This document shows positions 12,207 through 39,050 of a DNA stretch of 64,000 nucleotides, piece by piece (position 1 is the first letter of the stretch; each line of letters begins with the position of its first letter). Made by a program: the position numbers and the translations under genes. The stretch spans positions 20,019-84,018 of the forward strand of contig JACQAZ010000001.1 in NCBI GenBank assembly GCA_016194705.1. The letters run 5' to 3'. The notes beneath the pieces were generated by a model, which did not search any database, was not told the origin of the DNA, and saw only the letters and a program-made list of their open reading frames with translations. This stretch comes from Elusimicrobiota bacterium. Lineage in GTDB: Bacteria > Elusimicrobiota > Elusimicrobia > UBA1565 > UBA9628.

Positions 12207-12236
12207 GGCCAGATTCTACAATAGTATAATCACGGG

Positions 12237-13291: not shown

Positions 13292-13297
13292 AGTCTC

Positions 13298-14350: not shown

Positions 14351-14400
14351 AGGCTCAAAGCCGGTGCGGCTCCGGCCGCAAATGAGGTATCCTGGGAACG

Positions 14401-20641: not shown

Positions 20642-20723
20642 GGACGGCCTCCCGCGCTCGTGGGCGCTGAAAAATGATAGCAAACCGCGGCGCGTCAAGC
20701 CCGTTTCACGCTATAATCGGGGA

Positions 20724-21437
20724 GTGAGCGCCCCCGAGATCGACGAGGGAGACGCCGGGGACCGGCGCTACTACCGGCGCCTGTTCAACTACGGCTTCAT
20801 CTGGAATCTGGCGCACGCCCCGCGCCGGCGCATGTTCGAGACGTTCATGGCCGAGCTCAAGCCCCGGGCTTCGGAGACGGTGCTCGATCTGGGCGCCTCG
20901 AACCTGTCCGAACCGCTCGAGAACATGTTCGAGGTCTACTATCCGCACGCATCCAAGATCACCGCGGTGGGGCAGGAGGACTGCTCGTTCCTCGAGCGGC
21001 GCTATCCGGGCCTGCGCTTCGTCAAGGTCGAGGCGCATGGACCCTTGCCGTTCAAAGACGGGGAATTCGACATCGGCTTCTCGAGCGCGACCATCGAACA
21101 TGTCGGCTCGCGCCGGCAGCAGGGGCTGTTTCTCTCCGAGCTTCTCCGGGTCAGCAAGCGCGCCGTCTTTCTGACGACCCCCAACCGCTATTTTCCCGTC
21201 GAGCTGCACACGCGCCTGCCTCTGGTGCACAGGCTGCCCCCGGCCGTGTTCCGCTCCATTCTGAGGCGGCTCGGCTTTTCGTTCTACGCCGAGGAGGCTA
21301 ATTTGAACCTGGTCTCGCGCGCCGAGCTCAAGGGCTTGCTGCCTGCGGCCAAGTTCAAGCGCGCCGAACTGCGCACCTGCTCGTTCTTCGGCCTTCCCAG
21401 CAACCTGATTCTCATCGTCGAGAAAACCACCTCGTAA
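20724..21437 (+). CDS. Class I SAM-dependent methyltransferase
   Basis: VLDLGAS, LPFKDGEFDI, IEHVG, TTPNRYFPVELH. GTG start lies 6 nt after TATAAT. Confidence 0.85.
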   Translation: MSAPEIDEGDAGDRRYYRRLFNYGFIWNLAHAPRRRMFETFMAELKPRASETVLDLGASNLSEPLENMFEVYYPHASKITAVGQEDCSFLERRYPGLRFVKVEAHGPLPFKDGEFDIGFSSATIEHVGSRRQQGLFLSELLRVSKRAVFLTTPNRYFPVELHTRLPLVHRLPPAVFRSILRRLGFSFYAEEANLNLVSRAELKGLLPAAKFKRAELRTCSFFGLPSNLILIVEKTTS

Positions 21438-23242: not shown

Positions 23243-23848
23243 ATGACGACAAAAACCATCTGGCTTCTCTGCCTCCTCTCGCCGGCATGCACCCTGCCGC
23301 GCGCGCGGGCCGAGGTTCCGGCTCCGCTCCGGCCCGACCTCGTGCTGCGGCTCAACCAGGAACTCTTCGAGACCCAGGGGGTTCAGGAAGCCCTGGATGC
23401 GGGCAAACGACGGTTGGACCCGGGCTTCCACGATGCATTCCTCGATTTCAGGAACGACGGCATCCACCTCAAGTTCACGCAATCGCTCTTATGGAAAGAA
23501 TTCGAATTCGACATAATCCTGCGTCTACTCTGGACCGGCCGCAACACATTCGAAGCGCATCTCCAAAAATTCGATGTTTCCGGGAAGCTCCTTTTATTCC
23601 ATTTCAAGGTCGACCTTAAAACGCTGAAGGCCCAGTTATTCCAATTTTTCAAGCTCAACATCCAAGTCGTGCTGCTGGACGCCATCGATTTAAAGTATGT
23701 CGGGAACACGGCGGACCAATCGCTCGTATTCCGCGGCACGGTCAACGTGGGCAAGCTGGTCCCCCTGCCGGCGGCCGCCGACCTCGATCTCTCGGGCATA
23801 CAGACGCAGGACCGATTGTTGGTTTTAGAGTTGGCAAGACGTCCTTAG
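23243..23848 (+). CDS. Secreted hypothetical protein, TULIP-like, co-transcribed with the previous gene
   Basis: Signal peptide; alternating hydrophobic strands; 7-nt gap to the upstream gene. Confidence 0.7.
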   Translation: MTTKTIWLLCLLSPACTLPRARAEVPAPLRPDLVLRLNQELFETQGVQEALDAGKRRLDPGFHDAFLDFRNDGIHLKFTQSLLWKEFEFDIILRLLWTGRNTFEAHLQKFDVSGKLLLFHFKVDLKTLKAQLFQFFKLNIQVVLLDAIDLKYVGNTADQSLVFRGTVNVGKLVPLPAAADLDLSGIQTQDRLLVLELARRP

Positions 23849-24366: not shown

Positions 24367-25200
24367 TCAATAATCATGCCAATGCCATTTCGGCCTTTTG
24401 TCTTCGGGCGGATCGTCCGGCAGGCGGCTGTTCCACCCGGGGGCCACGATCAAGGCGTTGGCCTTTTCCGTGCAGCACCTGTTGGCCACGAAGCTCGCGT
24501 AGGTATTGCTGTTGGGTCCGGTGAAATAATAATAGCCGATGGGCCAGTCCTCGACGGCCTTGTTGACGCAGGAGATGCGCTCGTGGAGCTTCCTCTGGGC
24601 TTCGTCGGGGGGCAGTTTCTTGGAGCAATCGCTGCAGGGGACGCACGTGCCTCCCTCGCGATGCGTGATCTGCGGCCAAGTGTAGGGGCCGGTCGTGGGG
24701 CCCTCGCCGGTGACCGGATCGATCTCCTTGTGCATCTGCGGAAAGCCCTCCGTCGTCATCACGACCTTGCGCGCGGTTCTTTCCCGGATCCTTTCCCTGA
24801 TCCGGCTGAAATCCTTGTCCGCATTGGTCGAGATGCGGCGCATCTCGACCAAGTCGTGGCCGGTGTGCTCGGAGATGAATTGTATCCATGCCTCGTCATA
24901 GACTCTCCGCTCGGCCTTTTCGTCCAGGGACATGTGCTTGACCACCGCGATCCAGCAATGCGCGGGCGCCAGCGGAAAAAGGATGGGTGGAGCGTGGCCC
25001 GCGAAGTTGACCAGCAGGTGCGCACAGCAGATCTCGACTCCGGCCTGCGCGAGGGTCCCTGGCCCCGGGGGCAGCGACTTGTTGATCGCCGCCTGGGCCT
25101 GGCTTAAGGTCGAGTCGAAGTCCTGGGCGCGCGCGGACCAATGCAGGCATAAAGCCGCGGCCAGGAGCACCGTCTTGATCGCCATCCTTAGGCTCGTCAT
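24367..25200 (-). CDS. Secreted DUF3750-like (permuted papain-like) Cys-rich protein
   Basis: Signal peptide; HCWIAV near the N-terminus and YYYFTGPNSNTYASFV near the C-terminus. Confidence 0.55.
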   Translation of the reverse strand: MTSLRMAIKTVLLAAALCLHWSARAQDFDSTLSQAQAAINKSLPPGPGTLAQAGVEICCAHLLVNFAGHAPPILFPLAPAHCWIAVVKHMSLDEKAERRVYDEAWIQFISEHTGHDLVEMRRISTNADKDFSRIRERIRERTARKVVMTTEGFPQMHKEIDPVTGEGPTTGPYTWPQITHREGGTCVPCSDCSKKLPPDEAQRKLHERISCVNKAVEDWPIGYYYFTGPNSNTYASFVANRCCTEKANALIVAPGWNSRLPDDPPEDKRPKWHWHDY

Positions 25201-25415
25201 TCACATCGCCGCGTCTGCGGCTTTGAAACATAGGATTGCCTGTCTTGGAGGCACTCTCCCGAGGCGAATGGGTAGTCCGCCGCCGTCAAAGGTCCCTCTC
25301 GCGCGATGATAAAACTCTACCTCCTTCTTATCATGCCGCGATGACCAGCCGGTACAGCGGGCTCTCTCGCTCGCGGCGAGGTTCGTAAGCCCGGCAGGCG
25401 GAGACCGCTTAGGCG

Positions 25416-25572
25416 CTAGCAGGGTGCTGAAAAACTCGCGGTCGGCGAGCGTCGGGTCCGGGGCAGTCGTTCTCCGCTATTGGTCCGTTGCTTTAAAGCA
25501 ACGGACCAACGAGGAGTGATGGCCGAGCGGCGGAGCCAAGGCGGCCGAATGACTTTTTCAGCAACCTGCTAG
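25416..25572. mobile_element. MITE-like element with terminal inverted repeats and an internal 30-bp palindrome
   Basis: CTAGCAGGGTGCTGAAAAA ... TTTTTCAGCAACCTGCTAG (1 mismatch); CTAG at both ends; TTGGTCCGTTGCTTTAAAGCAACGGACCAA at 25480-25509. Confidence 0.7.
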
Positions 25573-28500
25573 CGCCCGAACGCGGCGAGCGCGAAGAGGC
25601 GCGGCACGATCGGGAAGCCGGGCAGGTTCGCCTTCGGGGTCGCCGCGTCGGCCGCGGCGCGAAGCGCCAGACGCGCCTCCTCGGACCGCGCGAGCGCGAG
25701 CTCGGCCTCGGCGATGAGCCTCATGTCGTCCGGCGGCGGGACGGGTTTGGCCTCTTCGAGCTTTTTCCGGTAGGCCTCGTAGACCTTGCGCCTCTGCTTC
25801 TGCTGGGCCGCGCCCAAGCCGACCTGCACCGCGACCCGCACCGTGTCCACGGCGATGTGATCGGGAGTCGCGACTGTCTGTCCGATGCCGTCCGAATCGG
25901 TGCGGTCGCCGATCGCATTCAGGGTGTTCTCGACGGCCAGCCTCCCGGTCTGGTGGTCCACCTTCGTTTCCGCGTACTCTCCCGCGCGGCCGCGCACGGA
26001 TTCTACGAAGCTCTTGCGCACGCTCCCCGTAAACGAGCCCATGATCTGGCCCCGGGCGTCCTCGAGGTCCTCCTTGGCCCAGCCGATCTCGCGCAGCAAG
26101 GAGCCCTTGCCCAGATGGACGTCTTTCTTGCCGTCCGTCGAGACCGGGGCTTTCTCGTGCTCCCACTCGCCCGGCTTTATCGGAGAGTCGTTGTCGACGC
26201 GCTTGGGGAACTGCGACGGATCGTAGTAGCGGTCGACCGGATCGGGCAGGATCTCGAAGATGTCGATGAAGTGCACGACCTTGCCGAGCGCGCCGCGGTG
26301 GACGGTCGCGCCGCCGTCGGTCTGGCGCATGTAGACGCGCCCGATGTAGCCTTCCTGGTTGGGGTCGCGGCCGGTGATCATCTCGATGGGCGTCTTGATG
26401 ATGCCGCGGGGGGTCTCGAGGATGATGTTGCCCCAATTCTGCGGCATGTAGGCCCAGCGTCCGTTGGCCCCGAGGCCGCTCTCCGCTTTCGAGAGCCTCT
26501 GCGCGAGGATCGCGCGTCCCAATGAGACGGGAAGGCCCGTCCTCGGGTCTATGTAGCGCTTGAGCCGCGCGATGGGCGAGATGTCCTTGTCGGTCTGCTT
26601 CCAGACCTTGCCCTCCATATCCTCGATCCACCAGGCGCCGGCCTCGCGCTCGAGTTCCTCCTTGCTGCGGAACACGCGCGCGACGCGCCCCTGCGCGTCG
26701 ACCTCCAGAGCCCAAATCTCGCCTTCGAGCCACTGCAAAGCGGCGCCGCCGCCGAGCTTGAAGGAGAAACCCTTGCCCGAGGCGCTCACGACGACGCCCT
26801 CGCCGTCGAGCCCGAGACGGAGGTCCGAGACGAGGTGGAAGGACCAGTCGTGCTCGAGCGACTTCGCGTCCTTGGCCTTTTCGCGCGCCGTGGAAAGTTC
26901 TTCCTGGTTCATGTAGACGGCCGCGACCTCGGCGTCTTTGTCGAGCGCATAGGCGAAGCCCTCCAGCTTGAGGTTGAGCCAACCTTTGCGCCGGGCGGCG
27001 AGCTCGTCGTTGGCCGCCTCGTCGAGCAGGGCGCCGGCGCCGCGCTTGCCGAATTCCGCCCTTTGGAAGAGCCGCGCGTAATCGGAGGCCTCGAGCGACT
27101 CGAGGCTCGGGAAGGTCCCGGCCGGCAGGGCCTCTCCCGAGACCTGCACGAGGATCACGAGCTCGTCGGGGCTCCTCCAGCGCGCGGCCAGAGCGTGGAC
27201 CGGCAGGCGCAGGCCCGCGCGCGGGTCGCGCGCCTTGTTGAAATAGAGGACCTTGCCCTGGCGCTCCATCCTCCTGAGCTCGGCCAGGCTCAAGGCGCCC
27301 GCGTACTGGCCCGCCTTCGCGCCGGACTCCACGCGAAGCGCCAGCTCGGATTTCTCGAGCGCCGCGTCGACTTCCTGGCGGCGCGAGCGCTGCTCGGCGC
27401 GAGCCTTCAGAACCTCGAGCTCTTCTCGGCGCGCATCGACGCCGGCCACGATCTCTTGGCCCCCCGCGCGCCGCGCCTCATCCTCGGTCGTCGGCCGGGC
27501 GCCGACGAAGGTGGGGGGGAGAAGGAAGCGCTTGCCGCCTAGCTCGACGACCTGGTTGCGGCCCTTGAGCCACTCCAGATCCTTGCCCGTCAGCCATTGC
27601 GTCTCGCCGCCGCCCTTGACCTCGTAGAGCGCCGGCAAGGACTCGGGCTTGGCGATCCAGCGCTCGCGCATCGCGCGCAGGAAGGCCAGCGACTCGGAGG
27701 CCGGCTGGATCTGGTCGCGCGCTTCCGGCGAGGCGCGCAGGGCCTGCATGCGCACCTCCCCCAAGGTGATCGCGCCGTCGAGCGTCACGATGCCGCGGCC
27801 GTAGCGCAGCATGTCGCGGCGGCGCTCGAGGCTGCCCCGCAGCCCGAACATCGCGTTGAGGCCGCTCGTCCAGCGCGGGTCCAAGCCCACCTCCTTCATC
27901 GCGAAGGTCTTGAGGACCTCGTTGTCGTAGGCGATGAGCGCCTTCACGTAGGCCTCCAGCGCCTTGTCCTTGAGCACGTAGTCCTCGGGCTTGAGCTTCT
28001 GCTGGAGGTAGTGGTGCAGCGCCTCCTGCCTCGCCTCGTAGACCGCGTCCTTGAGCGTCGAGAGGCGCGCATAGGCCGCCTCGACGGCCGGGGGCGCCGG
28101 GACCGCGCGCCAGTAGGCGGCGCGCAGGGCCTGCATCTCGTTTTGCTGACGGCGCACGTCGCCCTCGGCGCCGACGGCCTGGCTCTCGACGTCGGAGCGC
28201 AGGAAGCCCATCAGATCCGTCCAGGCCGAGCCGCCGCTTTGGGCCTCGAGCTCCCGCAGGATTTGCTCCAAGGCTGATTCCACGCGGCGCCGTCTGCCGT
28301 CGAGGTCGACCTTGGTCAGAAGGTCGAGCTTCTCGGCAGGCGTGAAGTCCTTGCTGAGCACGAGGCTCTGGCTGCGGCGGCTCGAGCGGTACTTCTCGAG
28401 CTCGCCCTTGAGGGACTGGCGCAGCTTGGGAGAGACCCCCGAGAGCAGCGAGTCCTGGCCTTTCTCGAAACCCTCGTCGAGCAGGCGCTGGGCCCAGTAG

Positions 28501-31500
28501 GCCAGCAGCTCCTGGCGCGGGGTCTTCTCCCCGGTCGCCGCGGCGGGAGCCGTCATCGATACGCCGCCCGAGAGGGAGGCCTGCCCCGTGTAGCCCAGGG
28601 CCTCGAGCTCGGTCACCAGGCGGATGAAGTCGAGCCTCAGGGCGTAGACGGTCGCGACCCACTCCTCGTGAGCCGCGGAGGCCTCGAGCTGGGCGGCCAC
28701 GACGTCGGCCTCGGTCCCCATGCGCATTCGCAGGCGCTCGACGGCCCCCATGAGGTTGCGGCGCGCGACCTCGACGCGGGAGCGCTCCGCCTCGAGGAGC
28801 TTGACCTTGTCGGAAACCGAGGCCATCAGGGAATGCAGCATCAGCGAAAGGCTCTTGAGCCGGTCCTGGGACTCGAGCTCGCGGCGCAGGGCGTCGTTGA
28901 GTATGCCCTCGAGGCTCTTCATGACCTTGATGGGATCGGGCGCCTCGAGGAAAACGCCGCCGACCCAGCGCCCCTGGAAGAGGCCGAAAGCGGCCAGCGG
29001 CGTGAAGCCCTTGTAGCTCATGCGCTCGGCGATGATGTTGGCCTGCATCTGGGAGAGCGGGTCGCGGGCGGCGGCGATCTCCTCGGGCAGGCCTTCCTGG
29101 AACAAATGGCGCTTGAGGAGTTCCAGGTCGAGGGCCTGCGCCTCGCTCAGGTAGCGGTCCGCCGCCGCGCCGAGGTCGGCGTCCTCGGCCGGGATGAGAG
29201 TGAGGAACTGATCGAGAGTCGTCCCCGACGGCAGCCTCAAGTGAGCCGCGACCTCGGCGAAATCGCGTTCGAGGGCCTTGCGCGCGCTCTGCGCCGCTTC
29301 GCCCTGGGCGCCGCGCGCTATGGCGACCTCCAAGCGCAGGCGCGAGAGCAGTATGTCGGCCTTGGCCTTCGCCAGCGAGAGCTCGGTCTTGTAGAGCGAG
29401 TCGGCCTTCTCTTCCTGCAGCTTCGCAAGCGCGATGAGCGCCTCGGGCGGAGTCGCAGCACTTCGCAGGCGCACCTCGATCCAGCCCTCGACGAATTGCT
29501 TGCCGATGGGCTCCTTGGTCAGGGACTGGCGCAGGTCGTAATACCTCAAGGTCCCGTTCGATTCGAACGGAGCCTCCTGCGGCACGGAGGCGCGCAAATC
29601 GCCGACGTCGGGACTCGCCGACTCCGCCCCCAGGGCGACTTCGAGCGCGTCCTTGAGCGCCGCGAAACTCGACGGCAGAGAGCCCTGCTTCTGCTCTTTT
29701 GCCCCATCTCCGCCGTAAGCCATCATCATCGCCTTGAGCCCGTAGATGCGGTTCCGGAGTTGGATCGCCGAAAGCCGGCTCGCCCCGTCGGTTCGGCCCT
29801 CGACGGCCTTCAAGCCCCGCTCGGCCGCGGCCAGTTCGAAGGACCAGCGCGCCCTCATGGCCGGCAGGCGCGCGTCGAAGGAGCGCAGGTCGCGCTCGGC
29901 CGTCAGGGTCTGCTCGCGCGCCAAGGCGACCAGTTCGGGCGACGCCAGGCCCTCGCCCGAGAGCGCCGAGATCAGCCGCCCCAAGGCTCGGCCTATCAAA
30001 GAGATCGGCTCGACGCGGATGTCTTGGACCTTGAGGTTCTTGTCGACGATCTGCTCGACGGATCTGGCGACCTTGACGCGCGAGGCCAGCACGTCCCTGC
30101 TGGCGGCGAGCGGATCCATCTTTCCCAGCCGGTCCTTGAGCTGCGCCAGGGCCTCGTCCATCGTGTCGGTGAGAGCAACGCCGGCGTCGAGCGGCCGGCC
30201 CAGCAGATAGTTGAGTTGGGCGCGGGCCTGGGCGAACTCCCCCTCCAGGTGTTTTAGGTCAGCGCGAGCTTGATCGAGCTCCAAGGATCGTTGAGCGCCG
30301 CCGTCCTGGGCGCGCTCGAGCTCCGGGATGATCTGGTCGCGGTAGAGGTCGCGCGAGTCGCGCGCCGCGCGGAAGGCCGCGTAGCTCTGGAAGAGCTGCA
30401 GGGAGAGGTCGCCTCCGACCTTCTCCTGCAGCCGTGAGTACATCGCCGCCTCGCCGCCGCGGCGCTCCATCGAGAGCTCTTTGAGCTCGCCCGGCTGCAG
30501 GGCGACGTTGAAGATCGGGAAGACCCCCAGGCCGGTGATCCCGAAGGCCGGGAGCAGCGCGACCCCGGCCGCCGTCAGGTTGAGCCCGATGTTGACGTCG
30601 ACGGAGACCTTCTGGAAGCGGTGGGAGGCCGCCTCCATGAGCTCGGAGGCGGCCTGCGAGCGCTGGGCCAGGGCCTCCATGTTCGGAGAATTCCCGACGG
30701 CCGCGTCGAACGCCTCGCTCAGCCGCCGCGGCGCCTCGGGGGCGTTGGCGTAATCGTCCTCGGCGCGGTCGGCGTTTTGAGCGCCGTCCATGACGCTCCA
30801 GGCGTCCTTGAGCGAGCCCTGGGCGCGCGCCTCGAGCTGGCCGCTCGTGGTCCAATACCAGCGCCTGAACCGCGCCCACAGCTCGGCCGGCGGGATGAGT
30901 CCGTTGCGCCACTGCCGGATTCCGTCGGCCAGCGCCGACCGCGCCGCCGGCGCCGAGGCCTGGAGCTGCCAGAAGCGCGCGTCCCAGGACTCCGCGATCA
31001 GGCGCTCCGAGCGCGACTTGAGCCGGAAATCGCGCAGGGAGCCGGCCATCTCCGCGATGATGGCCCGGTCCTGAAAGCGCAGGGCCTTGTCGTTCGACTT
31101 GGCGGCGGGGTCATAGATCGGCAGCCGCAGCGAGACCCCCGCGCCGATGACCTGGTTGGCGAGCACGTCCTGAAGCTGGACGCCCAGCGAGAAGGTGATC
31201 TTCTCGAAAAACGGAATGTAGTCCATCAGGTTGAAGCCTTCCTCGGGAACGCCCATCTGGCCGCGCAGGCCCGAGATCAAGTCGGAGAGGCGGTCGGGGC
31301 TCCCCAGAGCCTTCTGCAGCAGAGCGGAGAAGCCTTCGAGATCCTGCGGGGTCAACTCGTCGAGGATCGCGGTGTCGTCGGGGCCCCGGCCGGTCAGCGC
31401 GTTGTAGCGCAGCAGGGCCTGGCGATGGCGGTCGGCCGCCGAAAGCGCGCGGGTCTGCGCCTCGGCGCGGATGACGGGGTCGTCGGCGTTGGCGTACATC

Positions 31501-34500
31501 CAGGCGGCCAGCGACATGTCCCAGCGCGACTCGACGAGCTCGACGAGCGAGGCCTGCCAGGCCTTGGTGATGTCCAAGAGTCGCGACTGCAGGGCCAGAC
31601 CCTCCTGGAAGAGGGCGAGGATCTTGTCGTGGATGAGCGCCTTCTGGGACTTGGTCAAGGTGAGCTCGGTCATCGTGCCGACCTGGAAGCCGCCGCCCGT
31701 GGCGCGCTCGGCCGTGCCGGTGCCGACCGGGTTGGTCACGAAGCCGATCATGCCCCTCATACGAACGTTGTCCAGAATCGCCCCTGCCTTTTGCAGCTCT
31801 TTGAGGTCCCGTGTCATCTGGCCGATCTCGAGCGAGAGGAGCTTCTTGCCGACGTCGGCGTCGAAGACGCGCTTGAGTTCCAAGACGAGGCGCTCATCGG
31901 GCGACGAGCGCTTGAAGAACTCGTCGACGGACTTGTTGAATTTCGCGAGAGTCTGGCCTCCCTGCAGGTCCTCGGCGGCGCCGCCGGCTACGAGGCGCCA
32001 GAGCTCGCCCAAAGTGAAGGTCGTCTGCGCGCCCAGCGTCAGCCGGTCGTTGAGGCCCACGTAGCGGCTGCCGTAGGAGACGAAGGCGTCGGTGTTCTGG
32101 CCGAGCTTCTTCCTGAGCTCCACGAAGTAAGTGCTCGCGTCCCCGAGGATCTTCCCCTGGGCCGAGAGGGCGAGGCCCTGGTTGGGCAGCTCGAAGCTCA
32201 CGCGCCCCGACAGGGTGTTGTACTTCTCGCCGAGTTCCCCGGTACCGCCGATCGTGGTCTTGACAGGCGTGCCGTCAATATCGAAGGAAAAGCCCTTGAC
32301 GATGGTCGCTCCCACCGCGTTCTGCTGTATGTCGTCGGTGCCGGTGACCCTCGAGAGGTAGAAATCGACCTTGAAGCTGTCCTTGGTCTCGAGGGCCTTC
32401 TGGAGGTCGAAGCCCACGCCGACCTTGTCGCGCCGGAAGAACTTGTTGTCGCCGTGGGCCCCGATCACGAAGTCCTTGTCGAGGTCGGGGTCGAACTTGG
32501 TGAAGTCGAGGTTGACGGTCTGCAGGAACTTTCGCGGGTCCTTGGCGAACAACGCCGACTCCTCGGCGTTGAGGCTCATGATCTCGGAAAACTTCACGCT
32601 GGCCTTGACGTTGCCGCCGTAGTAGTAGGGCTTGTTGGCGGCATCCCTGGCCGCGAAATCGGCGAAGCCCGCGGCGCCGAAGTAGAGCTTGCCGTTGGCC
32701 AGCATCATCGCGAAATCGTCGAAGATCATCATGCGCGCCTCCTGGACCTGCGAGCCCACCTTGAGGTCCGGAGGTATGTCCTGGATGAACTTGTGGAAGG
32801 TCACGTCGAGGTAATTGACGAAGTTCTTGCCCTGCAGCGATTCGACCTGCACCGTGATGCCCTGGTCGCCGAACGGGGCGTTGCCGTCGGAAGGCGGGCT
32901 TGCGAAGCGGTGGCCGATGACGGAGACGTTGTTGCCCCAGAGGTTGAGCACGTTGCCCATGGTCATCTGGCTCGAGGTCTCGAGGCCTCCAGGCGTCGAG
33001 AATTCGGTCTGATAGACGAGGTAGAAACCGTCCGAGCCCGTGCCGACCTCGACCATCTTGGTGTTCGGGAGAAGCTGCGCCAGCGACATCGGGTTCTTGA
33101 GGATATCCTCGCGCAGGCCCGCGATGTCGCGCGCGGTGGAATCCGCCGAGATTGCGCCGAAGAGCTGGGAGAGAAAATTAGAGAACATCGACTTCGGGAT
33201 CACGATGGTCTGGGGTCCGCCCGGGCCCGTCGCGAGCCACGAGGAGCCCTGGCCGGAGACCGCCTGTACGCGGTTGGCCAGTTCCGGCGAGAGCTGGCGC
33301 AGGTCGCCGACGGCTTCGAGCTTCTTCGAGAGCAGGGCTTGCTCTTTCTGCATCGCGATCAGCGATTCCTCGAGAGTCTTCTTGGCGGCCGCGTATTGGT
33401 CGGTGAGCTTGTGGTGCTCGATGTTGGTCTCGAGGACGGCGCGCGTCTTGTCCTGGATCGCCGAGAGGTTCTCGGTCACGCGCCGCAGGGCGCTCTCGTG
33501 CGGGTCGTTGAGCTGCTTGAGCCAGCCGGTGACCTCGGCCTTCTGCTTGGCGATCTGGTCCTGGGCTTTGGTCAAGGTGTCCTTGAACTGCTGGGCCGCC
33601 TTGCGGTCGGCGTCGAGCGCCTGGTCGCCCGAGCTGTAGACCTGCCCGAGAGAGTCGTAGTAGCCGGCGGCGTCGGTGACGGTCTGGAAGGACTCGGTGT
33701 CCCAGGAGGTCTTCTGTTGGAAGATGCCCGCGCCCTCCTTGGCCGTGTCCCTGATCCGCGTGTAGATCGAGATCTTGCGGTCGGGCACCGCGTCGCCTCC
33801 CGAAAGGTCGCCGGAGACGAAGGCGTCGTCCGCGTCGAGGTCCGCGAAGACCGCATCGAGCGCTGAGGTCGCATTATTAAGGAAAGCCTCGAAGAGGGGG
33901 ATGCGTTCGTTGAGGTTCTTGTTGGCCGAGACGATCAGCGCGTCGGAAAACAGGAAGCGGGCCAGAGCCTCGGCGACCGAGTCTCCGGTCCCGGTCGCAG
34001 TCGTGGGCACGAGGCGCTTGACGACGTCGAGGCCGTAGAGCGCCAGCTGCTGGAGATTCTGGAGCGCGAGCGGCGGCTGCGGGCCCGTCGGTATGCTGCC
34101 GCCCGAGCCGCCGATGTTGAGATCGGTCTTCCCGGCCTGCGCCGAGGCTGCGTCGGCGATGGCCTTGATGTCGGCGGCCATGTTCTGGAGGACCTTGCCG
34201 TCGGCCATCGCCTTAAGGCGAGTCACGGAGTCCGCGCCGGTCGCAGATAGGTCCGTCGGCATCTTGTATTTCGAGGCGAGGTTGTACTTCCCGGGGAACA
34301 GCGCGTCCATCTTGCCGAGGATGTCGTTGATCTGCGCGTCGCGGGCGTTGATCTGTCCGGCTCGGAGGACCTTCTCCGCCTGATAAACGACGGCGCGCTT
34401 GACCAAGGAGTAGGGCGCCGGCTCGCCGTAGACGTCCTCGGTCTCGTTGTTGTTGGGGTCCTTGCGGCGGCGGATCTGGTCGACGAGGTCGTTGACGAGC

Positions 34501-37091
34501 TTGCGGTAGTCGTTGAACTGCTTGCGCACCTCCGCGATGCCGGCCTTGGCGCCCGCGACGTCGCCGAGCTTGGCCCCGCCGGAGGCCAGTCCCCAAGGGA
34601 AGGTCTTGTGCAGGCCGTCGTAGATCTTCTTGTAGACGTCTCCTTTCTGCTGATACAGCAAGGCCAGGCTGTCGCCGGTCGCGTGCGGATCGGCCAGGTC
34701 GATGCGGTCCTGCTGGTAGGGGATCAAGGTCTGGTCGAGCAGCTGCTGGAGGCCCTGAAGCTCGGGACGCAAGGTCGAGTCGACCAAAGCGGTCTTGCGG
34801 TCGATCAAGGCCTGCGCCTGGGATTGGGGGAAGCCCGCGTTGACGTACGCGACGTCGGCGGCGATGTCGCTCATGATCGCCTGCAGCGCGGCCACCGACT
34901 TCGTGAAGGCGTCGCGCACGGCGGGCAGGATCCGGGTGATCGGCTTGTCCAGCGCCTTGGAAGTCGCCTGGGCCTCGAGGCGGCGCACGGTCATGTCGCC
35001 CATGAAGGTCAAGCGCTTGGCGATCCCGAGCTTGGCCATCTTGCCGGAGAAGCCCGCGTCGGTGCCGGGGAAGGAGAGGCCGTCGATCTGGTCGACATAC
35101 TTGGGCAGGAGGTCGCGCAAGTCCTGCGCCGAACGGCCCGAGAGCCGAGCTAAAGTCGTGCCGGCGCCCTGCTCGACGGCCGGGGCCAGCGCGTCGATCT
35201 CGGAGGCGACCGCGTCCGAGGTCTGCCCTATGTTCGAGGCGAGCGCGTTCTCCTCGTTCTGATAAGCCACCAACGACTCGGGGATCGAGTCGCCGAAGTC
35301 GTTGAGCACGCGCTTGGAATTGCCGGGATCGAGCGCGCGGTTGACGCCGGCCAGCGTGTCTTGATGCTCTTTGAGCTGAGCGGCCCAATAGACCTTGCGG
35401 TCGGCTAGGATCTGCAGGGCCTGCGCGACCGTCGGATTGCTCGCGCTGACCGCCGGTATGCCCGGGACCAGCAGGACGAGCACGCCCGCGAACTCGACGG
35501 GCGTCGACGCCAATTTCGCGTCCGCGCCGCTGAGCAATGAGAGATCCGAGCTGATCTCGGCGGATTTCGATTTGAGGTAGTCCATCGAGAGGCTCGTCAG
35601 GTCGGTCGTGCCGCCGCCGCCGGAGCCGTGGATGAGCTTCTGTTGGAGCTGGGGCAGCAGGGCCAGGCGCCGCTGATATTCCGACGGCGCGTCGGCGCTC
35701 TGGCCCTTGTCGCGGGCGTTGATCGCGGCGACCAGGCCCGTAACGCCGGTCTTGAATTCAGTGATCCTCTGCACGCCCTGCGCGGCCTGATCGGAGAGCT
35801 TGCCGAAATCTTTGGTGTGCTGCTTGTCCAGGTCCAAGGCGTCCTGGGCGTCCTTGTTCCACTGGTCCTTCTTGGCCTTGTTGGCCGCGGCCGAGGCCGC
35901 GTTGGCGTCGTTGGCCTTCTTCTGGGCGTCGATCTTGGCGATCTTCTGGTCGAGGAGCTGCTGCATCCCGGCGAGCGCAGCCTGCGCCGAGTTGAGGAGA
36001 TTGAGGCTGTAGGAGAGGTCCATCACCATCGCCAGACGGGAAAAATTCTTGCGGAATTCGAGCATGTCCGAGCCGGAGCGCCGCTCGCGCAGAGCCGAGT
36101 CGCGCGCGCGGTCGGCGACGGCCAGCATCGCGGCCAGGGCGTCTCGCGCGGCGAGTTGGGCCTGAACGCTGGATTTGAGGGCCTCGACCTTGGCCACCTC
36201 CTTGGAAACCTGACGCTCCGTTTCGGTGCCCGCCAGGGCGGGCTTGGTCCCCGCTCCCGGCGCGGGAGCGGACTTCATGTCCTCGAAGAGCCGGCGAAGG
36301 GCATCCAGCGAAGCCCACTTGAGCTCGTTGGACTGCGTGCGCCCCGGAGCCGTCGCGCCTGGCCCCTCGAGCAGGTCCTTGTAATTCTTGGCCAACTCCT
36401 CGAGCCGAGCGAGCTCCTCGGCGTTCTTGGGCGGCGACGAGAGGTCGGCGCGCTGGGCGAGTTTTTCCTGCGCGGCCTCCTCATCGGAGACCGGCGTCGG
36501 GATGACGAGCCGAGCCGTGCGCGTCGGCAGCACGACCTCCGCCCGGGGCGGCGCCGGCGACTGGGGCGGCGCGGCGGCCGCCTCGAGAGCCGCGGAAGGG
36601 ACTCCCGAGAGGCTGGCGGCGAGATTCCTCGCGTCGGCCTGAAGCTTCTCGCCCTCGCGCTCCTTGCGCCGCTCGGGCGCCTGCTGCATGAGAGCGCGCA
36701 GCTCCTCGAGGCCGTCTCGCGCGAGCTCGAGGAGCTCCGGACGCGGCGCCGCGAAGTCGTCGAGGCCGGCAAGAGTCAAGGGAACTTCTACGCGGGTCGA
36801 AAGCCAGGCGGCCACCGCGCGACGGCCGTCGGCCGAGCGGATGGCCCGCGCTTGGGCCCGCAGGAGCCCCGCGATCGGGGGCGGGTCGACGCTCAGCAGC
36901 CGCGCCAATCCCGCGAAGGCCTGGTCGGGAGCGGCCGCCGGAACCATGGAGGCCCTCACGGGGCGGGCCGCGACGGGGGGGGCTGAGAGCTCGGCCGCCA
37001 AGGCCGGCCAAGGGCCGCAGAGGGAAAGGGAAACGACCCCCGCGAGCGCGCGGGGGGCCAGGGATGGGGCTCGGCGAGAGGGGTATCCCAT
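25569..37091 (-). CDS. Giant (3840 aa) secreted envelope protein: helical stalk + beta-barrel-like block + tandem TolC/OEP-like repeats + C-terminal domains
   Basis: Uninterrupted ORF with host-like codon usage and a signal peptide. TolC-like motifs: GVSLRLPIYD, WRNGLIPPAELW, LSEAFDAAVGNSP, ARAQLNYLLGRP, RMGTEADVVAAQ. Confidence 0.85.
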   Translation of the reverse strand: MGYPSRRAPSLAPRALAGVVSLSLCGPWPALAAELSAPPVAARPVRASMVPAAAPDQAFAGLARLLSVDPPPIAGLLRAQARAIRSADGRRAVAAWLSTRVEVPLTLAGLDDFAAPRPELLELARDGLEELRALMQQAPERRKEREGEKLQADARNLAASLSGVPSAALEAAAAPPQSPAPPRAEVVLPTRTARLVIPTPVSDEEAAQEKLAQRADLSSPPKNAEELARLEELAKNYKDLLEGPGATAPGRTQSNELKWASLDALRRLFEDMKSAPAPGAGTKPALAGTETERQVSKEVAKVEALKSSVQAQLAARDALAAMLAVADRARDSALRERRSGSDMLEFRKNFSRLAMVMDLSYSLNLLNSAQAALAGMQQLLDQKIAKIDAQKKANDANAASAAANKAKKDQWNKDAQDALDLDKQHTKDFGKLSDQAAQGVQRITEFKTGVTGLVAAINARDKGQSADAPSEYQRRLALLPQLQQKLIHGSGGGGTTDLTSLSMDYLKSKSAEISSDLSLLSGADAKLASTPVEFAGVLVLLVPGIPAVSASNPTVAQALQILADRKVYWAAQLKEHQDTLAGVNRALDPGNSKRVLNDFGDSIPESLVAYQNEENALASNIGQTSDAVASEIDALAPAVEQGAGTTLARLSGRSAQDLRDLLPKYVDQIDGLSFPGTDAGFSGKMAKLGIAKRLTFMGDMTVRRLEAQATSKALDKPITRILPAVRDAFTKSVAALQAIMSDIAADVAYVNAGFPQSQAQALIDRKTALVDSTLRPELQGLQQLLDQTLIPYQQDRIDLADPHATGDSLALLYQQKGDVYKKIYDGLHKTFPWGLASGGAKLGDVAGAKAGIAEVRKQFNDYRKLVNDLVDQIRRRKDPNNNETEDVYGEPAPYSLVKRAVVYQAEKVLRAGQINARDAQINDILGKMDALFPGKYNLASKYKMPTDLSATGADSVTRLKAMADGKVLQNMAADIKAIADAASAQAGKTDLNIGGSGGSIPTGPQPPLALQNLQQLALYGLDVVKRLVPTTATGTGDSVAEALARFLFSDALIVSANKNLNERIPLFEAFLNNATSALDAVFADLDADDAFVSGDLSGGDAVPDRKISIYTRIRDTAKEGAGIFQQKTSWDTESFQTVTDAAGYYDSLGQVYSSGDQALDADRKAAQQFKDTLTKAQDQIAKQKAEVTGWLKQLNDPHESALRRVTENLSAIQDKTRAVLETNIEHHKLTDQYAAAKKTLEESLIAMQKEQALLSKKLEAVGDLRQLSPELANRVQAVSGQGSSWLATGPGGPQTIVIPKSMFSNFLSQLFGAISADSTARDIAGLREDILKNPMSLAQLLPNTKMVEVGTGSDGFYLVYQTEFSTPGGLETSSQMTMGNVLNLWGNNVSVIGHRFASPPSDGNAPFGDQGITVQVESLQGKNFVNYLDVTFHKFIQDIPPDLKVGSQVQEARMMIFDDFAMMLANGKLYFGAAGFADFAARDAANKPYYYGGNVKASVKFSEIMSLNAEESALFAKDPRKFLQTVNLDFTKFDPDLDKDFVIGAHGDNKFFRRDKVGVGFDLQKALETKDSFKVDFYLSRVTGTDDIQQNAVGATIVKGFSFDIDGTPVKTTIGGTGELGEKYNTLSGRVSFELPNQGLALSAQGKILGDASTYFVELRKKLGQNTDAFVSYGSRYVGLNDRLTLGAQTTFTLGELWRLVAGGAAEDLQGGQTLAKFNKSVDEFFKRSSPDERLVLELKRVFDADVGKKLLSLEIGQMTRDLKELQKAGAILDNVRMRGMIGFVTNPVGTGTAERATGGGFQVGTMTELTLTKSQKALIHDKILALFQEGLALQSRLLDITKAWQASLVELVESRWDMSLAAWMYANADDPVIRAEAQTRALSAADRHRQALLRYNALTGRGPDDTAILDELTPQDLEGFSALLQKALGSPDRLSDLISGLRGQMGVPEEGFNLMDYIPFFEKITFSLGVQLQDVLANQVIGAGVSLRLPIYDPAAKSNDKALRFQDRAIIAEMAGSLRDFRLKSRSERLIAESWDARFWQLQASAPAARSALADGIRQWRNGLIPPAELWARFRRWYWTTSGQLEARAQGSLKDAWSVMDGAQNADRAEDDYANAPEAPRRLSEAFDAAVGNSPNMEALAQRSQAASELMEAASHRFQKVSVDVNIGLNLTAAGVALLPAFGITGLGVFPIFNVALQPGELKELSMERRGGEAAMYSRLQEKVGGDLSLQLFQSYAAFRAARDSRDLYRDQIIPELERAQDGGAQRSLELDQARADLKHLEGEFAQARAQLNYLLGRPLDAGVALTDTMDEALAQLKDRLGKMDPLAASRDVLASRVKVARSVEQIVDKNLKVQDIRVEPISLIGRALGRLISALSGEGLASPELVALAREQTLTAERDLRSFDARLPAMRARWSFELAAAERGLKAVEGRTDGASRLSAIQLRNRIYGLKAMMMAYGGDGAKEQKQGSLPSSFAALKDALEVALGAESASPDVGDLRASVPQEAPFESNGTLRYYDLRQSLTKEPIGKQFVEGWIEVRLRSAATPPEALIALAKLQEEKADSLYKTELSLAKAKADILLSRLRLEVAIARGAQGEAAQSARKALERDFAEVAAHLRLPSGTTLDQFLTLIPAEDADLGAAADRYLSEAQALDLELLKRHLFQEGLPEEIAAARDPLSQMQANIIAERMSYKGFTPLAAFGLFQGRWVGGVFLEAPDPIKVMKSLEGILNDALRRELESQDRLKSLSLMLHSLMASVSDKVKLLEAERSRVEVARRNLMGAVERLRMRMGTEADVVAAQLEASAAHEEWVATVYALRLDFIRLVTELEALGYTGQASLSGGVSMTAPAAATGEKTPRQELLAYWAQRLLDEGFEKGQDSLLSGVSPKLRQSLKGELEKYRSSRRSQSLVLSKDFTPAEKLDLLTKVDLDGRRRRVESALEQILRELEAQSGGSAWTDLMGFLRSDVESQAVGAEGDVRRQQNEMQALRAAYWRAVPAPPAVEAAYARLSTLKDAVYEARQEALHHYLQQKLKPEDYVLKDKALEAYVKALIAYDNEVLKTFAMKEVGLDPRWTSGLNAMFGLRGSLERRRDMLRYGRGIVTLDGAITLGEVRMQALRASPEARDQIQPASESLAFLRAMRERWIAKPESLPALYEVKGGGETQWLTGKDLEWLKGRNQVVELGGKRFLLPPTFVGARPTTEDEARRAGGQEIVAGVDARREELEVLKARAEQRSRRQEVDAALEKSELALRVESGAKAGQYAGALSLAELRRMERQGKVLYFNKARDPRAGLRLPVHALAARWRSPDELVILVQVSGEALPAGTFPSLESLEASDYARLFQRAEFGKRGAGALLDEAANDELAARRKGWLNLKLEGFAYALDKDAEVAAVYMNQEELSTAREKAKDAKSLEHDWSFHLVSDLRLGLDGEGVVVSASGKGFSFKLGGGAALQWLEGEIWALEVDAQGRVARVFRSKEELEREAGAWWIEDMEGKVWKQTDKDISPIARLKRYIDPRTGLPVSLGRAILAQRLSKAESGLGANGRWAYMPQNWGNIILETPRGIIKTPIEMITGRDPNQEGYIGRVYMRQTDGGATVHRGALGKVVHFIDIFEILPDPVDRYYDPSQFPKRVDNDSPIKPGEWEHEKAPVSTDGKKDVHLGKGSLLREIGWAKEDLEDARGQIMGSFTGSVRKSFVESVRGRAGEYAETKVDHQTGRLAVENTLNAIGDRTDSDGIGQTVATPDHIAVDTVRVAVQVGLGAAQQKQRRKVYEAYRKKLEEAKPVPPPDDMRLIAEAELALARSEEARLALRAAADAATPKANLPGFPIVPRLFALAAFGR

Positions 37092-37145
37092 TAGGCCTAC
37101 TCAGTCTATCCCTGAAGTCCCAGGTTCTCCAGGTCCAGACGGCCT

Positions 37146-37175
37146 ATTCTATCATGGGCCCGAAGTCCCTGTCAA
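37146..37175 (-). promoter_or_regulatory. Near-consensus sigma70 promoter of the giant gene (TTGACA-18-TGnTAGAAT) with an imperfect palindrome in the spacer
   Basis: Minus strand reads TTGACA gggacttcgggcccatga TAGAAT. Confidence 0.7.
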
Positions 37176-37277
37176 GTGCCGAGCTTGAAGAGTCGCTTTG
37201 TCGACGGTAATTAATCATTTAATGTCTGGCACTAATGAGCTTTCCACCGGTCCCACCGTCGGAAAATAGCCTCCGCC

Positions 37278-37646
37278 TTGACGGCGGCGACCCTTCCTTG
37301 CTACTCTTTGGTCGTGGAACCGGCCCGGGAAGCCGCCGCCCTGAGGCTTTGGCAGGCGGCGCGCTTTTTGCCTCAGAGCGTCCGCCTATTGGGGACCCGT
37401 TATCGGTCCTTGTTCGTCGCTTACGCCCAGCAATGCTCCCCCCAAGGCGACTCGCTGGCCGTGGCCGACGCCTTGGCCTTCGTCGAGTTCATGTTCCTGC
37501 AAAACCGGGTGGGGCTGCTCGATCCCGAGCAAAGGGCGCTGAGAAGCGACCAGAAGGCGCTGCGCCGGCGCTACCGGCTGCGGCGGCGCGGCGACGCGGT
37601 CTCGGTCGTGGAAAAATGGAAGGTACTCCAATGGTTGAGCTTCTGA
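37278..37646 (+). CDS. Small hypothetical protein, SCO6045-like helical domain
   Basis: LPQSVRLLGTRYRSLFVAYA...P.G....DALAF pattern. Start codon uncertain. Confidence 0.5.
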   Translation: MTAATLPCYSLVVEPAREAAALRLWQAARFLPQSVRLLGTRYRSLFVAYAQQCSPQGDSLAVADALAFVEFMFLQNRVGLLDPEQRALRSDQKALRRRYRLRRRGDAVSVVEKWKVLQWLSF

Positions 37647-38347
37647 AGAAGGGAAAGAAGACGGTCCCGCATCACACGGGAGTCGGGCGCGGCGAGTACC
37701 GCTCCGAGGCCCTGTTGGGCTTCGTGCGCGAGGCTCTCGGCGGGGAGGATCCGGCCTTCAAGAGAATCCGCGAGGAGACCCCGAAAAAGGGCCTGCCGCC
37801 GATCAGCATCGGACCGGACGAGGGCCAGCTGCTCTCCATCCTCGTGCAAGCCTGCGGCGCCAAGAAGGCCGTCGAGGTCGGCACCTTGGCCGGCTACTCC
37901 GCCTGCTGGATCGCCGCCGCCCTGCCTGACGACGGCGTCCTGCACACGATCGAGTTCGATCCCAAGCACGCGGCGGTCGCGCGCGACAACATCAAGGCCG
38001 CGGGCCTCGCCAGCAAGGTCACCGTCCATGTAGGCCCAGGCTCCGAGATCCTGCCGACTCTCGACGGCGAGGGACCCTACGATCTTTGCTTCATCGACGC
38101 CGACAAGGTCAACTACCCGGTCTACCTGCGCTGGGCCGTCGAGAACGTCCGCTCCGGCGGCCTCGTGGTCGGCGACAACGCCTACCTCTTCGGCAAGGTC
38201 CACTTGAAGCCCGCCGAGGCCGGCGAGGACGCCCCCGGCGTGCCCGCGATGCGCGCCTTCCTCAAGTGCCTGGCCGACCGGCGCTACTTCACCTCGTGCG
38301 CGATGATCCCGACCGGGGAGGGAATGGCGGTCGCTGTTCGTCGGTGA
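37631..38347 (+). CDS. O-methyltransferase (caffeoyl-CoA/COMT-like, Methyltransf_3)
   Basis: EVGTLAGYS, FIDADK, GGLVVGDN. Confidence 0.9.
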   Translation: MVELLKKGKKTVPHHTGVGRGEYRSEALLGFVREALGGEDPAFKRIREETPKKGLPPISIGPDEGQLLSILVQACGAKKAVEVGTLAGYSACWIAAALPDDGVLHTIEFDPKHAAVARDNIKAAGLASKVTVHVGPGSEILPTLDGEGPYDLCFIDADKVNYPVYLRWAVENVRSGGLVVGDNAYLFGKVHLKPAEAGEDAPGVPAMRAFLKCLADRRYFTSCAMIPTGEGMAVAVRR

Positions 38348-38628
38348 GAAAATCCGGCGCGGCCGTCCTCGAAGAGGAAACGACCTCGCACGGAGGGACC
38401 GAGTCCGGCTGGAGGACGCTCCTCTTCAACTGCGAGTGCCACAGCTTCGACCAAGTGGAGAGCCAGTTGTTGAAAGCGATCCGCTGCTCCCTTTCCAGGG
38501 CGCGCGCCATCTCTTGGGAGGTCCACACGAAAGGCTCGGCCGTGGTCTATGAAGGAGCGCGCGAGCGCGCGGAGGCCGTCGCCGCCGTGCTCGGCGACAT
38601 CGGGCTCATCGTCAAGGTCGCGCAATAG
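38344..38628 (+). CDS. clpS: ATP-dependent Clp protease adaptor ClpS (atypical NCECH motif)
   Basis: GTGA start/stop overlap; WRTLLFNCECHSFDQV...A..I.WEVHTKGSAVVYEG..ERAE...L...GL. Confidence 0.75.
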   Translation: MRKSGAAVLEEETTSHGGTESGWRTLLFNCECHSFDQVESQLLKAIRCSLSRARAISWEVHTKGSAVVYEGARERAEAVAAVLGDIGLIVKVAQ

Positions 38629-38632: not shown

Positions 38633-39003
38633 CCAAGTTCCCCCGGTTTTGTCGTTTACCTCCACCGGTGGAGGTAACCATCATGGAAGTGTCGGCAGCA
38701 CCAAGATGATTTGGTCTGCCGTTGTTGTTGGAGCTCTCGCCGAAGGCGAGAGCCGCCCGCCGCAGGCGCCGGTTTATGGGCTGCCGCCCCGCGGTCGGGC
38801 CCTCGCGCGCTCGAAAGGTCCGGGTCCGCCGCCACAGCCGCTGCGCAGGGACAGATCACCAATTTGATTTTCAGAATTCCCCTATAGGGTTTTGGGACAA
38901 TAAACTGCGTCAGGCCTTTGTCCCAAAACCCTCCTCGGGATTCCTAAAATACGGCGCGGAGCTTCCTCCCGCGGCCGCCGGGTTTGGGGCCGGGGGAACT
39001 TGG
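38633..39003. mobile_element. MITE-like element with 14-bp perfect TIRs, flanking direct repeat and internal palindromes
   Basis: CCAAGTTCCCCCGG at 38633-38646 and CCGGGGGAACTTGG at 38990-39003; CAATAGCGCC on both sides (38623-38632 and 39005-39014). Confidence 0.75.
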
Positions 39004-39015
39004 ACAATAGCGCCC

Positions 39016-39044
39016 TTGACTCGCGGCGTTACACCTGCTACATT
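39016..39044 (+). promoter_or_regulatory. Leaderless promoter TTGACT-17-TACATT
   Basis: ATG 39051 lies 6 nt after the -10 box; no SD. Confidence 0.65.
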
Positions 39045-39050
39045 TCGAGC

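Follow-up and report, generated by a model that had tools for sequence, protein, structure and literature searches.

The window analysed here, a stretch of 64,000 nucleotides from contig JACQAZ010000001.1 of an Elusimicrobiota bacterium, carries on its minus strand a gene of 3,840 codons (hereafter the giant), whose product is predicted to be secreted to the outer membrane and to combine, in a single chain, two membrane barrels with two long conserved flanks. The middle of this protein is predicted to have the TolC fold, with six repeats following one another in a single polypeptide. We propose that the giant may form the outer-membrane end of a duct or bridge that spans the envelope and carries its adaptor elements within the same polypeptide, a tentative reading to which we give slightly less than an even chance. 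The host is a groundwater bacterium with a genome of 4.16 Mb in 49 contigs, 95 % complete, and the window lies within contig C12. The parts of the gene are given below with their window coordinates, strand and amino-acid (aa) positions.

25569..37091 (-): whole open reading frame (ORF), 3,840 codons plus stop, one open frame without internal stops.
36993..37091 (-): signal peptide, aa 1-33, with a basic n-region, hydrophobic aa 15-33 (hydropathy 1.51) and an ALA-AE site.
36102..36992 (-): variable N-terminal segment, aa 34-~330, the least conserved part of the giant.
33072..36101 (-): N-terminal arm, aa ~331-1340, conserved and mostly long helix, from model and conservation.
32022..33059 (-): predicted outer-membrane-type beta-barrel, aa ~1345-1690, ~19 strands, in a model with a predicted local distance difference test score (pLDDT) of ~80-90.
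28512..31994 (-): single-chain TolC-like domain, aa ~1700-2860, six units of beta-hairpin, long helix and shorter helix, from the model.
27402..28511 (-): tail domain 1, aa 2861-3230, a helical region closed by a W..W.WL...GRRFLLP-type motif, delimited by profile matches.
25572..27401 (-): tail remainder, aa 3231-3840, with strongly conserved motifs including ITGRDPNQ.GY.GR, DPSQFP and VRGR.G.Y.

A first-pass annotation of this DNA had described a signal peptide, ~1300 aa of helix or coiled coil, a beta block of ~340 aa, TolC-like repeats and a tail of ~1000 aa, and most of these structural elements were found in the protein. The modelling in fragments that it had suggested was carried out on aa 521-1720 and aa 1690-2880 and returned a barrel and a TolC-like fold. 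The signal peptide could be read from the sequence, the beta block takes the shape of an outer-membrane-type barrel in the model, the repeats resolve into six units spanning aa ~1776-2831 with structural matches to TolC/OprM-type channels, and the tail (aa 2861-3840) has no assignable family. For the helical part, long helices are predicted over the modelled aa 521-1340, the model starting at aa 521.

The TolC-like domain was modelled with AlphaFold2 over aa 1690-2880, from a 50-row alignment drawn from genome loci, and the resulting model (pLDDT 75.3; predicted template modelling score, pTM, 0.73) displays six successive units whose long helices measure 45-69 residues. The hairpins are located at aa 1776-1813, 1964-1993, 2159-2198, ~2356-2381 (poorly predicted), 2511-2541 and 2697-2717, and they show pore-type alternation. 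The predicted fold is substantiated by structural comparison. A Foldseek search of the PDB returned 24 matches at E <= 0.001, and all 31 of the matches listed down to rank 38 are TolC, OprM, OprN, CusC, MtrE, CmeC, VceC, SilC or TOprJ1, at probability 1.0; with VIA-align, the top 29 entries are TolC-family channels (Z 17.7-12.3), followed by an unrelated row at Z 7.9. OprN aligns at Z 17.7 with a root-mean-square deviation (rmsd) of 3.8 Å over 294 residues, and TolC 1ek9 at Z 16.0 (4.9 Å over 334). Among the VIA-align rows, a solved protomer can be placed on model residues 131-616 or on 432-773, and these two registers imply that successive repeat pairs have TolC geometry in more than one register. 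It can be hypothesised that the six repeats close into one 12-strand barrel and a 12-helix tube, because of their count and order, the compactness of the model and the alignment registers.

At the sequence level, the TolC-like domain appears to be homologous to the OEP family (PF02321), with a family-level signal that is moderate, not strong. The OEP hidden Markov model passes its cut-off in two of the 11 full-length homologues (29.0 and 28.1 bits), one of the matches corresponding to query aa 1965-2071; on 41 of the 50 aligned domain fragments it gave five matches at E <= 0.01, two of them over the cut-off, in repeats 2, 3 and 6. A comparison by hhalign with single OEPs of the host genome (best 26.9 %, E 6.8e-4) was too weak and was replaced by an alignment of 24 ordinary OEPs from the same bacterial family, against which the domain scored 83.8 % (E 7.8e-6) over 281 columns. 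In the Atlas, which compares protein-language features, the nearest clusters are TP096X_N and OEP, with a score of 0.95.

The repeat unit of the giant, a beta-hairpin with a long and a shorter helix, is the same as that of TolC/OprM-type factors, and the helix lengths are similar. The arrangement differs, since an ordinary TolC has two repeats per protomer (~430-500 aa) and attains six units as a homotrimer, whereas the giant has six repeats in one chain. Unlike in an ordinary OEP, moreover, the TolC-like domain lies mid-chain in a protein of 3,840 aa, with a second barrel and long arms on its flanks. The module itself is of a known kind; the one-chain six-repeat form, with the second barrel and ~2,300 aa of unassigned flanks, would be new. 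The full-text literature searched held no description of a one-chain TolC, nor of the fusion of such a six-repeat form to a second barrel and flanks, nor of the missing partner genes.

The beta block that precedes the TolC-like domain comprises 21 predicted strands, of which 19 form a consecutive meander (aa ~1372-1690, 7-16 residues each) after a small hairpin. Dyad hydrophobic alternation is present in 16 of the 21, and the block is the most conserved part of the giant (identity 0.54-0.68). Foldseek gave no match to its model at E <= 0.001, the best being CdiB at 2.9e-3; the high-probability matches are membrane barrels, with CdiB followed by BamA, Toc75, porins, BcsC, PelB and VDAC. VIA-align placed CdiB at Z 17.3 (rmsd 4.7 Å over 286 aa), FhaC at 16.0, Wzi at 15.4, PgaA at 15.3 and FhuA at 14.7, with AlgE, OccK, Tom40, BamA and OmpM1 at Z 13-14. 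The block is predicted to be an outer-membrane barrel of about 16-19 strands and, since many unrelated barrel families score alike, it is assigned to a fold class only and to no family. An up-and-down meander of comparable size is common to TpsB (CdiB, FhaC), Wzi, AlgE, OccK and Omp85/BamA (Z 13-17, rmsd 4-6 Å over 230-300 residues), but the barrel of the giant is internal to the chain and matches no sequence family. TpsB and Omp85 proteins combine POTRA domains with a 16-strand ShlB/Bac_surface_Ag barrel, and neither was detected in the giant by Pfam. A classical autotransporter (type Va) ends in a C-terminal 12-strand barrel, whereas the ~19-strand barrel of the giant precedes 2,150 more residues, and the Autotransporter family had no Pfam match in the protein. 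As for a stand-alone form of the block, the 26 shorter matches proved to be fragments of the family, mostly on short contigs or labelled partial; no Pfam family was found in them, and no free-standing version of the block emerged.

Sequence libraries assign nothing to the protein as a whole. Pfam returned no family at E <= 1 and NCBIfam nothing above cut-off (one match at 18.7 bits against a cut-off of 45), while a profile of 20 homologues searched against PDB sequences yielded three rows at E 0.19-6.8, which are noise. Membrane-fusion proteins (MFPs) of the HlyD type have lipoyl, beta-barrel and alpha-hairpin domains, and no such family was detected in the giant by Pfam. The signal peptide was recognised from sequence pattern and hydropathy, and the consensus of 20 homologues retains its pattern. 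A lipoprotein reading (LSLC, aa 22-25) was rejected; the cysteine is not conserved in the consensus, and a leucine at position -1 does not fit a lipobox. The first three 100-aa blocks of the giant have a mean identity of 0.18-0.32, and long homologues carry insertions of 40-291 aa at query aa 37-152. The N-terminal arm was modelled together with the barrel (aa 521-1720, 41-row alignment; pLDDT 75.2, pTM 0.40), a low pTM being expected from the elongated shape, and aa 521-1340 form long helices of up to 94, 74 and 61 residues with pLDDT mostly 80-93. A test for an HlyD domain leaves these helices as a functional analogy only; the barrel filled the structural match lists, and the fold of the helices was barely probed. 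The arm also contains a conserved and strongly hydrophobic, proline-containing motif, PVEFAGVLVLLVPGIPAVS (aa 527-555, 35427-35513 on the minus strand, hydropathy 1.94), which is present in both paralogue classes described below. A single membrane pass at this point would contradict the topology proposed below, so that the motif may dip into the membrane or be buried in the fold.

A word-seeded search among proteins between 2,112 and 6,720 aa long collected 52 homologues, all at E = 0, with lengths of 3,659-5,734 aa, identities of 31-72 % and coverage of 77-100 % of the query. Where they are named, they are "hypothetical protein" entries of Elusimicrobia metagenome-assembled genomes, with the exceptions of one bin labelled Proteobacteria and one JGI name, "exonuclease VII small subunit". 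The first-pass annotation had not recognised the type as one already described, and the family is indeed free of annotation in the Pfam scan and in the homologue records. The barrel and TolC-like core (aa 1320-2860) was further searched against 401 genomes sampled from the phylum and matched in 55 of them, distributed over families f1 (39/47), f2 (9/10), f3 (1/2), f11 (1/1) and f8 (4/4); the giant was not found in families f4 (0/118), f5 (0/47) and f16 (0/89). In two related families of Elusimicrobiota, most genomes retain it as one large gene. The matches in the four genomes of f8, a family of the same class (G096, G130, G273 and G285), are weak and partial, at 26-30 % identity in frames of 2,623-3,817 aa, and are confined to the barrel and the beginning of the TolC-like region (E 2.6e-42 to 5.6e-22); these frames may represent a more distant branch of the family.

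The family falls into a short class of ~3,660-3,920 aa (P0001-P0022, n=22), to which the giant belongs, and a long class mostly of 4,100-5,730 aa (P0023-P0053, n=31), the latter sharing 31-40 % identity with the query over 77-84 % of its length. A short and a long copy occur on separate contigs in 12 genomes, the host among them (G000, G072, G176, G182, G238, G279, G291, G295, G320, G331, G341 and G356; in some, a contig end cuts one copy). The long paralogue of the host, of 5,724 aa from its likely start, lies on the minus strand of contig C41 at 184528-201882 (L070:1526-18781). In its N-terminal 1,950 aa a module is repeated twice, at aa ~207-525 and ~619-950, each composed of two strongly hydrophobic helix pairs and a domain of ~140 aa. 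Another hydrophobic cluster occupies aa ~1280-1351, and the C-terminal helix is followed by RRGKR. Pfam found no family in the first 1,800 aa of this protein, nor any in its N-terminal extension.

The ORF is coding over its entire length, as is argued by the composition of each of its eight 500-codon blocks, where in-frame G+C at third codon positions (GC3) is 0.87-0.92 against 0.40-0.51 at second positions (GC2), with high GC3 in this frame only. The gene is present in four DNA runs of one groundwater-metagenome study, with no RNA run listed for it, and contigs from two of these runs, from different samples and one of them a possible source run, cover every one of the 30 bins of 25000-37600, differing by one or two substitutions and by no indel. 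Some joints in this tiling had sides of 20-22 letters and were attributed to other organisms or to the paralogue, such sides being shorter than 30 letters. High-G+C DNA does yield many long spurious frames (63 ORFs of at least 100 aa in 22 kb here), but an assembly chimera or a chance open frame is already refuted as an explanation by the restriction of high GC3 to this frame, by the indel-free tiling in two samples, by 52 full-length homologues from independent assemblies that are each colinear with the query, and by the confident models obtained for two fragments of the protein. Splitting is not the rule among the homologues either and was seen at one of 12 loci. In genome G178 the N-terminal ~1,010 aa form a separate frame (L065:2442-5474 and 5471-16462, plus strand), the first frame ending in TGA and overlapping by 4 nt the remainder of 3,664 aa, which starts with GTG; either the gene is truly split here or the assembly may contain a frameshift. 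Neither of the objections raised in the first-pass annotation, chimerism or routinely split homologues, is therefore borne out, and its description of one stand-alone gene stands, with an intact frame and a promoter of its own.

The orientation of the arms can be approached through the long paralogues. Hydropathy was scanned along the 53 proteins of the family in windows of 19 residues, at a threshold of 1.7. Among short-class proteins the scan picks out only the signal peptide, the aa ~527-555 motif and one TolC hairpin, and in some of them one more segment near aa 700-750. In the long class, strongly hydrophobic segments cluster in the N-terminal extension of 28 of the 31 proteins, and a hydrophobic segment lies within the last 110 residues of 27; neither the N-terminal clusters nor the C-terminal segment was found in any of the 22 short-class proteins. 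At the 10 long-class C-termini inspected, the segment is followed by basic residues (RRRR, RRGK or similar), in most cases after a Pro/Asn-rich linker, and a helix followed by basic residues has the usual look of a helix ending in the cytoplasm. Both ends of the long form are predicted to be held in the inner membrane, and its two barrels to lie in the outer one. Since the arms of the two classes are homologous and the long class has predicted inner-membrane helices, both arms of the giant are most likely periplasmic. The idea of a self-contained trans-envelope conduit, put forward in the first-pass annotation, survives in part: a trans-envelope role gains indirect support from the inner-membrane helices of the long paralogues, and self-containment finds no support in the giant itself, which has only a signal peptide and no membrane anchor of its own. 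Nothing pointed to prey attachment or cell contact, which had also been suggested there, and the topology of the paralogues argues for an N-terminal arm in the periplasm rather than at the surface.

Dma1 is a smaller one-chain protein for which spanning of both membranes has been demonstrated experimentally (PMC10927553), and this precedent bears on the feasibility of the topology predicted for the long paralogue. The giant does not have a Dma-like topology, with an inner-membrane helix and an outer-membrane barrel in one chain; the long paralogues do, by prediction. Dma1 is a regulator of ~55 kDa with one barrel, whereas for the long paralogue an inner-membrane anchor is predicted at each end. 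Proteins with more than one outer-membrane barrel per chain, a trait common to the giant, have been predicted in 34 architectures, most of them with 8-stranded barrels and from Proteobacteria and Bacteroidetes (Solan et al., PNAS 2021, PMC8346858); in the main text of that study, whose supplements may list more families, "TolC" and "Elusimicrobia" each occur 0 times.

On this basis, we propose that the six OEP-type repeats of one chain would form alone a 12-strand pore and a helical periplasmic tube of ~100 Å. The core would be flanked on its upstream side by an arm of ~1,300 aa, with helices of 110-140 Å, and on its downstream side by one of ~980 aa; both would hang into the periplasm and do in cis what separate MFPs do for an ordinary TolC. 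Through the arms the duct in the outer membrane would be connected with an inner-membrane partner, the giant being the outer half of the duct or bridge, and the likeliest inner partner would be the family's long paralogue or a complex assembled around it. The giant would be a monocistronic gene with a strong promoter of its own. Tripartite efflux pumps and type 1 secretion systems likewise have an outer-membrane duct, a long periplasmic tube and helical periplasmic elements directed towards the inner membrane; in the giant, by contrast, the periplasmic elements belong to the same polypeptide, no MFP family is present, and no ATPase or resistance-nodulation-division (RND) component is associated with it. 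In the long paralogue the inner-membrane part, too, would be in the same chain, by prediction. A wider proposition, possible though clearly below an even chance, is that the short and long paralogues constitute an undescribed envelope machine, a conduit or bridge that dispenses with a separate adaptor and with an ATP-binding cassette (ABC) or RND pump. At its centre would be a monomeric six-repeat TolC-like duct that shares one polypeptide with a second barrel and with arms spanning the periplasm. Starting in the inner membrane, the long form would put two barrels in the outer membrane and return to end in the inner membrane, and the short form, the giant, would be its outer-membrane-only partner.

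Several points weigh against the proposal of an outer-membrane duct joined to an inner partner. Within the TolC-like domain, the fourth hairpin is poorly predicted (pLDDT < 50 at aa 2362-2381), and repeats 5-6, the third pair, are not explicitly aligned to TolC among the matches listed. OEP stays below its gathering score in the query itself, with nothing at E <= 1 in the whole protein and nothing at E <= 0.01 when aa 1690-2880 are searched alone. Internal repeat similarity is weak, hhalign giving E 5e-4 between the first and second thirds and nothing for the others, and we infer the closure of the six repeats into one barrel from the pTM, the repeat order and the two registers. The structural models span aa 521-2880 of 3,840, and the membrane helices of the paralogues come from a hydropathy window, not a trained predictor. 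The short form lacks an inner-membrane anchor, that it touches the long paralogue is a guess, and in three genomes of 84-89 % completeness (G367, G380 and G374) only a short-class match was found.

The main rival to a duct is a mechanical role, in which the giant would be a strut of the envelope, its TolC-like tube and long helices rigid and holding the outer membrane at a set distance from the inner membrane or the wall, with no transport involved. Such a tether or spacer would be in keeping with the helices of 61-94 residues in the N-terminal arm, with the housekeeping-like presence of the gene in the two families in which it is common, with a partial synteny that involves ClpS, aldo-keto reductase and TPR genes rather than transport genes, with the absence of an energising component nearby and with the predicted fixation of the long paralogue in both membranes. 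A strut would nevertheless hardly need a complete six-repeat TolC fold with pore-type hairpins, kept across 31-72 % identity, and no peptidoglycan-binding family (OmpA_C, SLH or LysM) was detected in the giant by Pfam. We consider a purely mechanical role unlikely, although far from negligible, and it is compatible with an outer-membrane duct, the two not being exclusive.

Two further explanations are less likely. The giant might be an ordinary outer-membrane factor with decorations, serving conventional pumps of the ABC, major facilitator or RND type together with MFPs encoded elsewhere, its arms being accessory. Stand-alone genes of this kind that serve several distant pumps are well known, as with E. 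coli tolC, and the genome has MFP matches on contigs C4 and C29. It already possesses, however, three ordinary OEP genes, one of them directly next to an MFP gene, and has no RND pump at the family cut-off. About 70 % of the giant lies outside the TolC-like part and is conserved, and in a one-chain pseudo-trimer the ~2,300 aa of periplasmic mass on both ends would probably obstruct the docking of an MFP hexamer. The partners of ordinary OEPs, MFP and pump, are often, not always, encoded adjacently, whereas none was found at any of the 13 loci of the giant family: no ABC, RND or HlyD family among the 21 flanking ORF candidates scanned around the giant, and no pump or MFP family in 60 flanking ORFs at 11 orthologous loci and the paralogue locus, in agreement with the first-pass annotation, which had noted no such gene beside it. 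An ordinary factor is accordingly improbable. More improbable still is a surface adhesin or contact device, in which the adjacent barrel would serve, in two-partner or autotransporter style, as the exit for the N-terminal ~1,300 aa, and these would touch prey or substrate. The best structural matches of the barrel are indeed the TpsB proteins CdiB and FhaC, whose alignments begin in a helix upstream of it (model residue ~680), and the N-terminal ~330 aa are the most variable part of the protein. Yet Wzi, AlgE, OccK, Tom40 and BamA score almost as high (Z 13-15), which makes the similarity generic; neither the POTRA, ShlB/Bac_surface_Ag or autotransporter families nor any family of adhesin repeats was detected, and nothing indicates a predatory lifestyle. 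The N-terminal hydrophobic helix clusters of the long paralogues and their C-terminal helix with basic residues fit inner-membrane insertion and a periplasmic arm.

The C-terminal tail was compared, as a 12-row profile of aa 2861-3840, with 1.84 billion representative proteins, and 151 matches at E <= 0.001 were obtained, mostly members of the family or their fragments. About 20 stand-alone proteins of ~430-570 aa (in the range P0132-P0207), all labelled "hypothetical", match profile positions 1-370, equivalent to aa 2861-3230, that is tail domain 1. Six were inspected, and all five full-length sequences among them have signal-peptide-like N-termini. When 34 of the tail matches were scanned, 27 had no Pfam family and seven had TPR or Sel1 repeats after the domain. 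Within the host genome only the giant and its long paralogue match the tail profile, and in the 401 phylum genomes a profile of the stand-alone proteins matched only within frames of the giant family or contig-limited pieces of them, with no stand-alone tail domain 1; for one stand-alone protein a locus was sought in genome and metagenome contigs, and none was found. The aligned blocks of the tail remainder suggest a mixed alpha/beta composition, and the last 500 aa of the giant gave nothing at >= 0.9 in the Atlas.

The near-consensus promoter reported for the giant in the first-pass annotation was recovered ~55 nt upstream of the ATG at 37091, inside the 143-nt gap to a divergent O-methyltransferase gene, in a region where a scan gave four promoter-like sites against 0.7 expected. 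The promoter and the genes around the giant, those beyond its 3' end followed by those beyond its 5' end, are the following.

37146..37175 (-): sigma-70-type promoter, TTGACA-18-TAGAAT, with TG before the second hexamer, 11/12 matches.
24367-25200 (-): weak DUF3750-like ORF.
21562-23235 and 23243-23848 (+): two ORFs without known family.
20640-21437 (+): methyltransferase.
18152-20698 (-): S9 peptidase.
37235-38347 (+): O-methyltransferase, divergent.
38086-38628: ClpS.
39000-40538 (+): caspase-like protein (Peptidase_C14), two genes from the giant.
41316-42329: aldo-keto reductase.
43175-44791 (-): PMT_2 protein.
44861-47866: TPR protein of 1,001 aa.

Among these neighbours, ClpS recurs at three orthologous loci, and the aldo-keto reductase and the TPR gene at one or two; a DinG-like helicase lies downstream at three related loci (L062, L063 and L068). 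TPR-linked Ser/Thr kinases are found near five of the 11 orthologous loci, and a functional linkage between kinase and giant was discounted, the window having no kinase and such genes being frequent in these genomes. At one orthologous locus a Sel1-repeat-caspase fusion directly adjoins the orthologue of the giant (L059:15696-17882, minus strand). The 368-nt gap past the stop codon of the giant holds a promoter-like element, ATGATA-17-TATCAT (25306-25334), a perfect palindrome that was scored on both strands. The 557-aa ORF at 21562-23235 has a signal-peptide-like start and lies in a stretch of lower G+C (0.57); it has the motif DLKGGETLK.YN.QLDDFF in common with the giants, exactly at their barrel/TolC-like junction, with 59 % identity over 39 aa to the long paralogue (pairwise E 5e-10) and 39 % over 46 aa to the giant, at aa 1688-1730 of the latter.

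To our knowledge, a channel of the TolC type is regarded as an obligate homotrimer reliant on separate adaptors and pumps. A natural version in one chain, if true, would mean that the trimer is not needed for the TolC fold, and each of the six repeats could then be changed separately, an asymmetric mutagenesis that would be useful for studies of gating. It also raises the question of how the BAM machinery would fold a 400-kDa chain into two barrels and a tube of 12 helices. When the long paralogue is included, the family may comprise one protein that spans the inner membrane, the periplasm and the outer membrane and then returns, and such a one-chain bridge, if true, would be relevant to the way in which little-studied diderm phyla link their membranes. 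The family has neither a Pfam family nor a functional annotation in the records examined, yet its genes are among the largest of these genomes and are present in most of the genomes searched from two families of Elusimicrobiota.

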